From IMG/VR virus record IMGVR_UViG_3300044266_000171, positions 1 through 35,221 of that record: 35,221 bases of DNA; one strand, written 5' to 3'. Below the pieces are notes generated by a model. It worked only from the letters and a program-made list of their open reading frames with translations. It did not search any database and was not told where the DNA came from. This stretch comes from a virus (taxonomy: Duplodnaviria > Caudoviricetes). Both the position numbers and the translations under genes were made by a program. Below, piece after piece: positions 1-11,520 of this stretch. Position 1 is the stretch's first letter, and each line of letters opens with the position of its first letter.

Positions 1-65
1 CAACCAACTAAATCGCTCCAGTCACCGCTCCCGCTCCGACAGGAGCGATAAACTATATACAACAA

Positions 66-93
66 CTAACAATAAGACAACCCCGTAACATCA
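66..93 (-). promoter_or_regulatory. Putative phage late promoter motif (GTTACG-N8-9-TTATTGTTA on - strand)
   Basis: CTAACAATAA-N7-CCGTAACATCA recurs as CTAACAATAA-N8-CCGTAACATCA at 33462-33490 and partly at 25592-25615; both other copies sit directly upstream of - strand structural genes. Confidence 0.6.
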
Positions 94-131
94 CAACAAA
101 AACACAAAAACATGCCCTGACCAGCACCCCA

Positions 132-171
132 ACCAAAACTTTACCAAAACCTTACCAAAACTTTACCAAAA
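132..171. repeat. 11-bp tandem repeat ACCAAAAC(T/C)TT x3.6
   Basis: Units start at 132, 143, 154 and 165. Confidence 0.9.
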
Positions 172-180
172 ATAAGATAA

Positions 181-224
181 ACATTAACCAAACATTAACT
201 TAACGTTCACCCTACGTTAACCAA
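181..224. repeat. 11-bp tandem repeat resembling PHO/OmpR-family boxes
   Basis: ACATTAACCAA ACATTAACTTA ACGTTCACCCT ACGTTAACCAA; contains GTTCACCC-N3-GTTAACC. Confidence 0.7.
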
Positions 225-321
225 AACCACACACACAAACATGTACCGAACCATCAGGAATCATACAGGTTTCATAGGGGGTGGGGGGCCGTATACCCCG
301 TGCCTGCCCTAGAGGTGCGTG

Positions 322-363
322 TTAGGCATGCCTAGCGGTGTGTGTTAGGTCAGCCTAATCGAA
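322..363. promoter_or_regulatory. Two DtxR/IdeR-family-like boxes
   Basis: TTAGGCATGCCTAG (322-335) and TTAGGTCAGCCTAATCGAA (345-363; 16/19 match to TWAGGTWAGSCTWACCTWA). Confidence 0.55.
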
Positions 364-518
364 CGTGTGTTCGCCGAACTAGTGTTCGACGTACAAGTGT
401 TCGACGAACATATGTTCGCACACGAGCCGACCCCCGATCGAACGTATGTTCGATGGCATCCGTGGGCTGGGGGTCGAACGTTTGTTCGTCGTACGTGTGT
501 TCGTCGTACTGGTGTTCG
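360..518. promoter_or_regulatory. Array of eight LexA (Gram-positive/actinobacterial SOS) boxes
   Basis: CGAAC-N4-GTTCG at 360, 375, 405, 439, 475; CGTAC-N4-GTTCG at 390, 490, 505; mostly 15-bp period. Confidence 0.85.
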
Positions 519-614
519 TGCACAAGCGCACAAGCGCCGTTGTACGGCCCTAGGACGTTTCTAGGCACCTACGACCCATTTCGGGCGCGATCGGCCGTTA
601 GAAGCGAAACCCAC

Positions 615-680
615 ATTTCCACAGGGTTTTCCACAGTTTCCACAGGTTTGTTGTCCACAGTTTCCACAGGTTTTCCACAG
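615..680 (+). promoter_or_regulatory. Array of six co-oriented DnaA-box-like sites
   Basis: ATTTCCACA 615, TTTTCCACA 627, GTTTCCACA 636, TTGTCCACA 651, GTTTCCACA 660, TTTTCCACA 671; each followed by G. Confidence 0.8.
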
Positions 681-717
681 TTTCTCTCGCGCGCGATCCA
701 TTCTCTATTCACGTGAG

Positions 718-770
718 GATCGAACGTGTGTTCGATCGCGTGCTGGGTCGCGGTCGAACGTGTGTTCGAC
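718..770. promoter_or_regulatory. Two further perfect LexA boxes
   Basis: GATCGAACGTGTGTTCGATC (718-737) and GTCGAACGTGTGTTCGAC (753-770). Confidence 0.85.
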
Positions 771-874
771 GGAAATTGTTGTGCACTTGTTGTGAAGTTG
801 GTGTTGGGTTTGTGTGATTTGTCTGCCAGTCTTTCCCCATCGGCACCACGGGGTGCCACGAACAGCCAGAAGGT

Positions 875-900: not shown

Positions 901-1452
901 ATGAGCACCAACTACGAGACTGCAGCGGGACTGATTGCAGATAGCAGTGTCACGAACCTTGCGGGACTGTTGCTCGCATCGGCTCAAGCGGTCGCCGACG
1001 GGGTGATCGTGTGGGAGGCCGATAAGGCCCGATGCAAGCGCAATGGCGGCCAGAAGAAGGTCGTGGACCTTCTGACTGCGGCTCAGCCCGAACGGTTCGA
1101 CGGTATCGACCTTCAGGGAATGCTGTCGAAGTGTGTCAAGGCGCTGTTCGTGCTTGACGGAGGCGAGGCCACTCGGCTCGCATCGGACGATGATCGGGAA
1201 ATCGTGGCCTTTCGCATGGCGGGCAAGTACGGTAGCCTGAACGCTATGTCATCGGCGCTGTACCCTAAGCCTGAGGCCGATGATGAGCCGACTGAGGAGA
1301 CTGAGCCGACTGAGGAGACTGAGGAGACTGAGGAGACTGACGGTTTCGACCTTCTGGCGGCCGCGGTGACTCTCGTTCAGGCGGCCCGTAAGCGTGACAT
1401 CGCCGACGATGACATCCTGTCGGCTCTCATGCAGGCGATGGAAGGCCAGTAG
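901..1452 (+). CDS. Hypothetical early protein with acidic (EPT)EET repeat linker
   Basis: ATG at 901 after purine-rich GGACAGGACAG; first ORF of the + arm. Confidence 0.85.
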   Translation: MSTNYETAAGLIADSSVTNLAGLLLASAQAVADGVIVWEADKARCKRNGGQKKVVDLLTAAQPERFDGIDLQGMLSKCVKALFVLDGGEATRLASDDDREIVAFRMAGKYGSLNAMSSALYPKPEADDEPTEETEPTEETEETEETDGFDLLAAAVTLVQAARKRDIADDDILSALMQAMEGQ

Positions 1453-2831: not shown

Positions 2832-2883
2832 CATGATTGTTGACAACCATGATTGTTGCAAATGTTACAATCATGTTACAATC
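2832..2883 (+). promoter_or_regulatory. Promoter/operator region upstream of the AAA gene
   Basis: TTGACA at 2840; two TGnTACAAT extended -10-like motifs; direct repeats CATGATTGTTG x2 and ATGTTACAATC x2. Confidence 0.55.
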
Positions 2884-9231: not shown

Positions 9232-9308
9232 GCCTATCTACCCCAACAGGCAGAGGGAACCGACTCAAACTCGGTACAGTGTGGGTTCGACTCCCACGGT
9301 AGGCACCA
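9232..9308 (+). tRNA. trnL: tRNA-Leu(CAA)
   Basis: Acceptor GCCTATC/GGTAGGC, anticodon arm ACCGA-CTCAAAC-TCGGT, T arm GTGGG-TTCGACT-CCCAC, discriminator A, encoded CCA. Confidence 0.92.
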
Positions 9309-9650: not shown

Positions 9651-10735
9651 ATCAACAGGACATTGCGGACAAACTGGAACAGTTCGATACCGTAGGAGCC
9701 TATGAACATTACCGTCCGCTGCGTGATGCAGCGGACGAGTTCATTTCTTGGGCTGCTTCACCGAACGAACGGGTCTACACGGGTATCGCAGAACTTGATG
9801 CTGCGATGCGTGGCACAGCCCCAGGTGAACTCACAATTATTCAAGGGTTCACCCATAGCGGTAAAACGTTGCTGGTGACAGAGTTGATTCTCAACAACCC
9901 TGACACACCGCTCGTGTTGTTCACCCCTGACGAGACTCGCCCGTTGGTGCTAACCAAGTTGACTAGCGCGTTACATGGGGTGGGTGCGAAAGAGTTGGAG
10001 GAACGCATCCAACGTGACGACGAAACCGCACGACGACTGCTGGTCGATACCGCTGAACGGTATGGGAAACTGGCTATCTTTGACGAGTCGGTATCGGTTG
10101 TTGACATGGATAAGATGATGGATGAGGCATGCCATGCATTCTCTCAGAAACCTATGGGTATCATCTTTGACTATGCGGAACTGTTGGAAGGGCCAGATGA
10201 TGTGAAGTCGAAGATGACTGCACTCAAGGCGTGGGGTAAGCGACAGCGTGTCGCCATGTTCGTACTGCACCAAACCTCCCGTACCAGCGGTAGCGGTGGA
10301 CGCAAGGTGGGTATCGACAGTGGTGCGTATGGTGGCGAGCAGCAAGCCACCCATGTGATTGGTGTGCGTCGCAAGAAGTATATGCACATGGCGATGTTGT
10401 CGTTGTTGGATGAGAAGATTGCGAACAGTACGAATCCGAAAGCGATTGAGGAATACAAGTCCCGTATCCGTCAGATCGAAACTGTTGATCTGCCTCGTGA
10501 TATGGATACGGTGACGGTTTCGTTGGTGAAGAACAAGCGGCCCCCGTGCGATCTTGTGGACGACATTGATTACAAGATTGATTTGGGTACTGGTCGTGTG
10601 CGTCGTATTGAGCATGTGCAGGACGAGTATGGGAACACGGTGCGTGTGTCGAAGGCTGCTGCGCTAGACTATTTGCGTCAACGCAGGCAGACGCAACAGG
10701 TTGAGGATGCGTTCACAGATTTGGAAGATTTCTGA
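9647..10735 (+). CDS. dnaB: DnaB-like (SF4/RecA-fold) replicative helicase
   Basis: TGIAELD, Walker A GFTHSGKT, IIFDY, LHQTSR, KNKR. Confidence 0.88.
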   Translation: MNQQDIADKLEQFDTVGAYEHYRPLRDAADEFISWAASPNERVYTGIAELDAAMRGTAPGELTIIQGFTHSGKTLLVTELILNNPDTPLVLFTPDETRPLVLTKLTSALHGVGAKELEERIQRDDETARRLLVDTAERYGKLAIFDESVSVVDMDKMMDEACHAFSQKPMGIIFDYAELLEGPDDVKSKMTALKAWGKRQRVAMFVLHQTSRTSGSGGRKVGIDSGAYGGEQQATHVIGVRRKKYMHMAMLSLLDEKIANSTNPKAIEEYKSRIRQIETVDLPRDMDTVTVSLVKNKRPPCDLVDDIDYKIDLGTGRVRRIEHVQDEYGNTVRVSKAAALDYLRQRRQTQQVEDAFTDLEDF

Positions 10736-11520
10736 TGCGGTTCTATCTTGGAACTGACGATCCCAGTTGGCTTAGAACATCCACAGTCCCACTGTTTATC
10801 TCTCGCCGTCGGCTCGCCATGCGGAAAACCCATGAGAGATACAAAACTAATGTTGATTGGTGCATTGATAGCGGTGGGTTTACCGAATTGAATCTGTTTG
10901 GCAGGTGGACAACAACGCCGCAACAGTATGTTGCGGAGGTTCGCAAATATTGCGAACAGATCGGTAGAGTTATTTGGGCGGCACCGCAGGACGCGATGTG
11001 CGAGCCGTGGATTCTGGAAAAATCTAGAGATTGGCTTGGTGGCACGGTTACTGCACATCAGGTGTATACTGTAGAAAACTATCTGGAACTGGTTGATATT
11101 GCCCCCGATCTCCCATTCATCCCAACCTTGCAAGGGTGGGAGTTGGATGACTATCTGGCACACATCGACATGTATCGACAGTATGGAATTGACCTTACCG
11201 AATTCGCTACCGTTGGTTTGGGGTCTGTGTGTAGGCGGGAAAGCACCACGCAGATTGCGGAGATAGTTGGAACGCTCCATAAGACTGGTATCAAACTGCA
11301 TGGATTTGGCATGAAAACTGGTGGGGTTGCAAAGTGTGGGCAGTTCTTAGAATCATCTGATTCTATGGCTTGGTCATTTGCCGCCCGACGTAGCGGCCCT
11401 CGTCCTTGTCCGCACAAAGGATTGAAGTGCTGTAATCATTGTTACGAGTTCGCTTCGGAGTGGCGAACCAATCTGTTTAGTAGAGCAAAAGCAAATGGTG
11501 TTTACATGGAGGATTTCTGA
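10735..11520 (+). CDS. dpdA: DpdA-like TGT-fold base-exchange (deazaguanine DNA modification) protein
   Basis: IDSGGF, PQDxMCE, IPTLQG, LHGFG, SSDSMAWS, C-terminal Cys cluster. Confidence 0.8.
   Translation: MRFYLGTDDPSWLRTSTVPLFISRRRLAMRKTHERYKTNVDWCIDSGGFTELNLFGRWTTTPQQYVAEVRKYCEQIGRVIWAAPQDAMCEPWILEKSRDWLGGTVTAHQVYTVENYLELVDIAPDLPFIPTLQGWELDDYLAHIDMYRQYGIDLTEFATVGLGSVCRRESTTQIAEIVGTLHKTGIKLHGFGMKTGGVAKCGQFLESSDSMAWSFAARRSGPRPCPHKGLKCCNHCYEFASEWRTNLFSRAKANGVYMEDF

Follow-up and report, generated by a model that had tools for sequence, protein, structure and literature searches.

What could a phage gain from a leader, free of genes, in which operator-like sites for several different host regulators are lined up in tandem? 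The question is raised by the left end of an uncultured virus genome (Duplodnaviria; Caudoviricetes), IMG/VR virus record IMGVR_UViG_3300044266_000171. The stretch analysed here, called the window, has 35,221 nucleotides and comprises the entire record, which is 87% complete. A sequence-only reading had proposed that the DNA ahead of the first early gene is a sponge or landing pad for host DNA-binding proteins, which might titrate these proteins as the genome amplifies, carry them as a coat on the first-ejected DNA end, or use host LexA and DnaA as repressor and initiator. Here we describe this element, which is real, family-wide and apparently undescribed, and infer its function.

Phage genome and setting

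The phage is a podovirus of ~40 kb with divergent gene blocks. Minus-strand genes encode a P22/SU10-type portal, a capsid protein and internal virion proteins, and plus-strand genes encode a CobS-type ATPase, exonuclease, helicase, primase, DpdA and RusA (47 and 25 ORFs were scanned). The terminase genes terS and terL are absent from the record and would be expected left of base 1, as in relatives; a contig from a freshwater metagenome run, the one run that contains the record and possibly its source, reaches 1,639 bases beyond base 1. A search for tyrosine integrases in five genomes (the window phage and four relatives) gave no match. Among the ORFs scanned we found no DNA polymerase and recognised no initiator, although helicase and primase are present, and the 47 ORFs scanned include no iron, phosphate or arginine cargo gene. 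One tRNA gene lies at 9232–9305. AGCT and CCGG do not occur in the 35 kb and CGCG is found at 0.36 of expectation; the DpdA gene of the same phage is located at 10735–11520.

The leader has no Rfam match, and overlapping ORFs considered as hidden genes proved to be repeat-derived. A search with the leader sequence matched one uncultured record, and it revealed no cultured relative with known genome ends. Searches with single blocks returned six chance-level matches for the LexA block and none for the DnaA block.

Operator-like blocks in the leader

Bases 128–770 contain ten LexA-type boxes, six DnaA-type boxes, two IdeR-type boxes and a PHO-type 11-bp array, and every block listed in the sequence-only reading was recovered in its place. 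The LexA-type boxes are split, as originally described, into eight at 360–518, with runs at a 15-bp period, and two at 721–768 adjoining the early promoter region. Seven are perfect CGAAC-N4-GTTCG sites (360, 375, 405, 439, 475, 721 and 755, hence both of the latter pair) and three are CGTAC variants (390, 490 and 505); the remaining 34.3 kb holds no perfect box and four with one mismatch. The six DnaA-box cores were likewise confirmed as T[TG]TCCACAG at 616, 628, 637, 652, 661 and 672 (plus strand, 616–680), with no DnaA-trios alongside and one further copy in the window. The two DtxR/IdeR-like boxes correspond to TTAGG-N4-CCTAA palindromes (≤1 mismatch) at 322 and 345 (322–358, 23-bp period), a motif with no other occurrence in the window.

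Two repeats had to be redrawn. The 11-bp repeats reported at 132–224 are present, but form one plus-strand array of nine units in an 11-bp register over 128–226, the best units of which (183, 194, 205 and 216) are of the PHO type (PhoP/PhoB family). The repeat reported at 776–805 also exists but is the weakest item, consisting of three imperfect units in G/T-rich DNA; it spans 776–808, overlaps the candidate early −35, is an inverted partner of 87–149, and is absent from the TRF output and from the direct-repeat families.

In 1,000 dinucleotide shuffles of bases 1–900, mean counts were 0.065 (LexA), 0.022 (DnaA), 0.009 (IdeR) and 0.019 (PHO pairs), with maxima of 2, 1, 1 and 2, respectively; the observed 10, 6, 2 and 3 were reached by none. 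A co-occurring strain differs from the window at ten positions within 127–214. One change weakens a unit of the array and two restore one, while the others fall in spacers, a degenerate unit or the edge.

A conserved core and variable modules in related leaders

Relatives were gathered by terS, independently of the motifs, giving 13 viral and 14 metagenome loci. Fourteen leaders were mapped, namely those of the window, of MW202803 and of 12 among these 27 loci, after removal of duplicates and of contigs with too little early-side sequence. Absence of comparable arrays from related phages had been named in the sequence-only reading as grounds for rejecting it, and such arrays were found.

All mapped leaders share a core, 58 bp long in the window (243–300), composed of a GTAC motif, GAATCAT, a 12–15-bp G/C run (G-rich or C-rich) and TATAC, in this order. 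It lies about 450–600 bp upstream of terS, and farther in L209, where an ORF with paired cysteine motifs (~330–590) is inserted between core and terS; this ORF is missing in the near-identical L210. Keto skew flips sign at the core in 14/14 leaders, and also tracks transcription direction. Left of the core, the CGTAACA element (84–90 in the window) is kept at a distance of 150–220 bp in most relatives, and CTGACCAG (117–124) recurs in several, with no enrichment at host dnaA loci.

To the right of the core, modules vary in order and number among the 14 leaders. LexA-type modules occur in six, DnaA-type in eight, IdeR-type in eight and ARG boxes in two, together with several others, so that the repertoire extends to ArgR, CRP, parS and Fur-like types; the names CRP, parS, Fur-like, TetR-like and GntR-like are labels that we presume to fit these other modules. 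The GCACAAGCGCACAA module (520–533) recurs in L185 and L186, where its position differs. Modules flank the core on both sides, the first beginning 22–74 bp away in 12 of 14 leaders, and those on the left are PHO-type, GTNAC-type or DnaA repeats; the DnaA-type module of L187 is one of these. The content mixes repressors, activators and an initiator, and is interchangeable among leaders. Half-sites keep their exact sequence, in contrast to the variable spacers between boxes.

No module is universal. DnaA modules are missing in five leaders and in L202, which has no module at all on the early side, and LexA modules are missing in several as well. DnaA boxes number 0–8 per leader, on either side of the core, and neither number nor order is conserved, unlike in T5. 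A parS site was found in one of 14 leaders, L186, as a near-perfect copy. The more distant relatives L212, L213 and L219 carry few modules or none, as judged by eye.

Two further properties were seen outside the modules. Long alternating purine–pyrimidine tracts, possibly capable of forming Z-DNA, lie directly upstream of the early promoter region in L185, L195, L196, L208, L210 and L008 and at window 687–696. In L191, L195, L196, L210 and L008, untranslated stretches of 500–1,000 bases with hairpins, possibly non-coding RNAs, separate the early promoter region from the first gene.

Correspondence with operators of candidate hosts

The class Acidimicrobiia was chosen as candidate host because a related terL (55% identity) falls in the bin of an Acidimicrobiaceae MAG, which is a pointer to the host and not proof of it. 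Motif names were assigned beforehand, and the 25 best-scoring loci were then read per test. Against these genomes the original assignments to LexA, DnaA and IdeR hold. A LexA-type box precedes lexA in 25/25 loci, GTACG variants included, with 1–5 boxes per gene, and the DnaA 9-mers of the window are among the commonest at host dnaA loci. IdeR-type palindromes were found before iron-uptake-type genes at 10 of 24 loci (FTR1 in four, solute-binding proteins in four, a siderophore pair and an imelysin); genome-wide, the 14-mer is no commoner in the hosts than its reversed control.

PHO pairs precede pstS-like genes at 16/25 loci, compared with 2, 1 and 0 of 25 at control loci, with sense orientation in 16/25 and antisense in 1/25. 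The ARG box taken from relatives' leaders stands before argC at 14/25 loci vs. 1 and 0 of 25 in controls. Three other motifs gave no assignment: Rex was dropped as binder of the 520–533 module (exact 15-mer pattern in 0/61 host genomes), the TTGCG module occurs in 11/61 host genomes with no clear regulon among neighbouring genes, and CTGACC was rejected as an origin mark, with seven matches at dnaA loci vs. 3–4 in controls.

The same operator motifs are in use across Actinomycetota, and the host can therefore be placed at the phylum level only. One copy of the phage genome carries seven perfect LexA boxes, compared with a median of 17 per host genome (range 2–39; 32 genomes ≥1.7 Mb). Nine Acidimicrobiia genomes of 0.6–1.1 Mb have 0–1 perfect box each, which disfavours streamlined Acidimicrobiia as hosts.

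Position of the sites relative to promoters

All promoters discussed here were predicted with a matrix whose training set included some of them; 11 leaders have an early call and three have none. In the window, the candidate late promoter (TTGTCT-17-TATAGT, 52–80, minus strand) faces the missing terS/terL and is the top minus-strand matrix match. The candidate early promoter (TTGGGT, 17 bp, extended −10 CAGTCT; 804–832, plus strand) was called by analogy with relatives. It is weak and not the top matrix match, with alternative matches at 776 and 787.

Two classes of sites can be distinguished, promoter-adjoining ones with fixed spacing and core-side modules without register. To the first belong CRP-type boxes, which end 33 bp before a −10 in five of seven cases, and GTTAC pairs placed 27, 37–40 or 47 bp before a −10, those at window 2863–2883 included. 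At 2863–2925, GTTAC direct repeats stand 38 bp before the −10 ahead of the CobS-type gene, a register kept in several relatives, and probably represent a site for a host OmpR-family activator. Core-side sites behave differently: only 1 of 93 in the 11 leaders lies within −45 to +60 of a called −35, with ~14 expected (by hand sum) if evenly placed, and most are found 100–500 bp upstream of the called early promoter.

In the window, eight of the ten LexA boxes lie 290–440 bp before the called, weak −35. The boxes at 721 and 755 are close, 36–83 bp before this −35 and only 7 bp before the alternative match at 776; the alternatives at 776 and 787 would bring the box at 755 into promoter range. L191 has the same geometry. 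The pair at 721–768 plausibly comprises the only LexA-type boxes able to regulate the early promoter, and no LexA box occurs downstream of the predicted early start (839–901), the arrangement known from phage GIL01. The PHO units are ~580 bp from the early promoter and, at 183–226, point at the core and away from the adjacent late promoter, so that neither promoter has a PHO pair next to it in the sense orientation.

The core as a probable packaging site

The core is probably a pac or terminase site, given its conserved position upstream of terS in the relatives, and we infer headful packaging from it. The associated terL is of the Terminase_6N type, with T4-like best cultured matches. A scan with the left half of the core returned 36 matches, 25 of them not cores, and contigs read through all 11 true ones; three of five right-half matches were unrelated. 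The metagenome-run contig spans the core and shows neither a joint nor a signal of an end, and the near-complete relatives G003 and G068 circularise elsewhere. No fixed genome end was found, and every contig long enough runs through the core. No terminal repeat was seen in the contigs, although the phage may have short ones. Contig ends of L194 and L200, 30–50 bp short of the G/C run, were considered as termini; a break at variable DNA is likelier, because the entire early start is missing from the L194 record. The proposed protein coat on the first-ejected end requires a fixed end at this place and thus loses ground.

A probable phage-encoded regulator

The palindrome TTCTG-N-CAGAA occurs in 16 copies in the window vs. 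a shuffle mean of 0.01, and in 5/5 relatives; some relatives use other palindromes. The first copy, a probable phage operator, is located at 875–885, and the others start at 1454, 1534, 1878, 2126, 4007, 6770, 7313, 11821, 15229, 16056, 17371, 17602, 18647, 21723 and 30155, before early genes and within genes in a stoperator-like manner. A one-mismatch copy falls in the spacer of the promoter at 2890–2925.

The first early gene (901–1452, plus strand) belongs to a fast-evolving all-helical family (L186:2098–2631, L187:1817–2269 and others; 13–21% identity to the window copy) in which the middle part is HTH-like and a pair of C-terminal helices is conserved; three of nine members have weak HTH matches. 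No homologue was found for the window copy, the model of which has a pLDDT of 57. A relative's model (pLDDT 84) gave no fold match at E ≤ 0.001, only weak ones to HTH regulators. The product of the first early gene is a candidate binder of TTCTG-N-CAGAA, and the 16-copy palindrome together with the HTH-like first gene makes a phage-encoded regulator likely. The original statement that the phage has neither repressor nor integrase accordingly stands for the integrase and is doubtful for the repressor.

LexA-type pairs in other phages

Paired LexA boxes with the 4-bp spacer were found in ~460 viral stretches (an estimate from 18 of 64 parts) vs. 40 with a 5-bp spacer, i.e., right-spacer pairs outnumber wrong-spacer pairs ~11 to 1. 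We fetched 127 loci, 84 of them with flanks, and annotated 108 representative ORFs of 393 clusters, so that short terL pieces may be missed. By this annotation, terL of several families is present in 20 of the 84 flanked loci and was not found nearby in 64. The array is upstream of terL in all 20, by 0.5–2.7 kb where the start is visible.

With the proteobacterial-type box, for which the E. coli consensus of PMC9578287 was used, terL is present in 32 of 69 loci, many of which belong to one family; the pair is upstream in 25 and not upstream in seven. Which motif occupies the terL-upstream address thus depends on the phage group, in agreement with host phylum. In the group L489–L557 (e.g., L507, L519 and L526), two proteobacterial-type boxes stand directly before the probable terS, which suggests SOS-gated late expression and resembles promoter control. 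A second actinophage family (L025, L045, L057, L058, L082 and L094) has a G/C-run core of its own, which precedes a different terL, and tandem promoters that alternate with LexA, IdeR, CRP and parS sites.

Possible functions of the leader

We tentatively favour the view that the leader is a swappable cassette of host-operator look-alikes serving as a gene-free decoy for several regulators, to which we give somewhat less than an even chance. Among the three original ideas, titration fits best, because the sites are exact, tandem, mostly out of promoter register, interchangeable and sometimes absent; the 64 LexA-pair loci with no terL found nearby are also expected if position is not essential. 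From its place between the predicted divergent promoters, the cassette, once present in tens of genome copies, would bind LexA, DnaA, IdeR and PhoP off the host chromosome. Loss of free LexA would be predicted to derepress SOS partially (RecA, division block), and loss of DnaA to stall host initiation while sparing the host polymerase; iron uptake would be derepressed and the phosphate-starvation response blunted. Relatives would tune other regulons, such as arginine, metals and carbon. In E. coli, the Pho response came late or failed altogether when plasmids supplied 96–672 PhoB decoys (PMC8599769).

Several points speak against a decoy. LexA autorepression via 1–5 boxes buffers titration, and titrating activators (PhoP, CRP) brings no obvious benefit. 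SOS induction could also wake host prophages. A decoy needs no fixed place, yet the modules hug the core and the arrays lie upstream of terL in all 20 terL-bearing loci with LexA-type pairs; spare non-coding room may explain this placement. Finally, L202 manages with no early-side module, and L212, L213 and L219 with few or none.

The sites might instead sense host state by controlling the early or late promoter, in lytic deferment or a carrier state; stress would release repressors from the sites and recruit activators to them. Precedents are known from GIL01/LexA, CtrA phages and cyanophage Pho boxes, and the closeness of the boxes at 721 and 755 to the called −35, repeated in L191, is what such control would look like, as are the interleaved promoters and operators of the second actinophage family (L045, L082) and the proteobacterial-type pairs before terS. 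We nevertheless consider this doubtful for the cassette as a whole: a single core-side site of 93 is at a called promoter, the PHO units face away from the nearer promoter, the 47 ORFs scanned include no cargo gene for iron, phosphate or arginine, and the GIL01 boxes lie downstream of the start site, where the window has none. A little less probable still is a coat of host proteins over the packaging site or the DNA end that shields it from exonuclease-helicases, ratchets or halts entry, or gates the terminase. It would account for modules close to the core on both sides, for their exchange irrespective of activator or repressor role, and for the terL-upstream address across several terminase families. 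For the T5 injection-stop region with its eight DnaA boxes, a tethering role has been proposed (10.1101/866236). The missing fixed end, a terL resembling headful types and the majority of LexA-pair loci away from terL argue against a coat. RecBCD-type motors, moreover, evict bound proteins.

Plasmid-like upkeep, with DnaA boxes initiating, parS partitioning and LexA restraining lysis, appears very unlikely. Six clustered DnaA boxes, the skew flip at every core, the parS of L186, and a helicase and primase with no integrase and no recognised polymerase or initiator are suggestive, but a strict pattern of DnaA box plus DnaA-trios was found in 0/14 phage leaders vs. 11/25 host dnaA loci, the DnaA modules are dispensable, parS is confined to one leader, and the skew follows transcription as well. 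The same absence of trios, and of LexA and DnaA modules from several relatives, weakens the original idea of host LexA and DnaA serving as repressor and initiator. Marginally less probable again is a near-neutral spacer of host operator snippets picked up and amplified by slippage with no selected role; fast turnover, the module-free relative and the ten differences between co-occurring strains agree with it, whereas exact half-sites between varying spacers, the recurrence of at least five validated host motifs and the excess of right-spacer pairs do not. The readings are not exclusive, as the two promoter-nearest boxes may regulate while the others titrate. We also speculate, as an improbable extension of the decoy, that the interchangeable operator library acts as both a gene-free takeover device and a copy-number switch. 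With few genomes, low-copy host regulators would saturate the core-flanking sites and block terminase; once replication outruns the host pool, bare copies would let packaging start, and host SOS, iron and initiation control would collapse together.

Comparison with known systems

The E. coli datA locus is a DnaA titration site associated with IHF-dependent hydrolysis. Like datA, synthetic DNA sponges and PhoB decoy plasmids, the cassette presents clustered high-match sites outside promoters, in numbers that reach the range shown to matter for PhoB (PMC8599769). It differs from datA and the decoy plasmids in being phage-borne, in addressing several regulators and in having its content swapped among relatives, with titration being a prediction here. 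Like the leader, the T5 injection-stop region is a long piece of untranslated DNA in which DnaA boxes cluster among other repeats (10.1101/866236; PMC13250531). T5 keeps eight DnaA boxes in fixed order within a 10-kb terminal repeat, whereas in this ~40-kb podovirus DnaA modules are optional and mobile, and the contigs display no terminal repeat.

GIL01 has the same 14-bp box consensus and is also a phage without integrase-type lysogeny; there, two sites follow the P1 start and LexA has a co-factor (PMC4551915), in contrast to the ten boxes of the window, which precede the predicted start and are interspersed with other operators. CtrA-dependent lytic deferment (PMC9437464) and cyanophage Pho boxes (PMC10976474) are further cases of lytic phages with host regulator sites. 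In both, these sites belong to promoters of particular genes and to one regulator, whereas the cassette has many, mostly out of register; predicted phage Pho boxes did not always bind in the latter study. The DnaA 9-mers are those flanking host dnaA, as in actinobacterial oriC, from which the leaders differ in having no trios and no conservation of DnaA boxes across relatives. In the literature searched, which does not extend to most subscription papers, no report of a phage with a multi-operator cassette was found.

Implications

Should the cassette indeed titrate host regulators, DNA alone would suffice for a phage to reprogram its host, and such reprogramming would escape gene-centred surveys of auxiliary metabolic genes. 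The leaders with different modules, together with the one without, form a natural comparison series, and they are relevant to a long-standing question, the retention of host-factor arrays by T5-like phages. The modules are also host markers for uncultured phages and list operators of regulators yet to be assigned.
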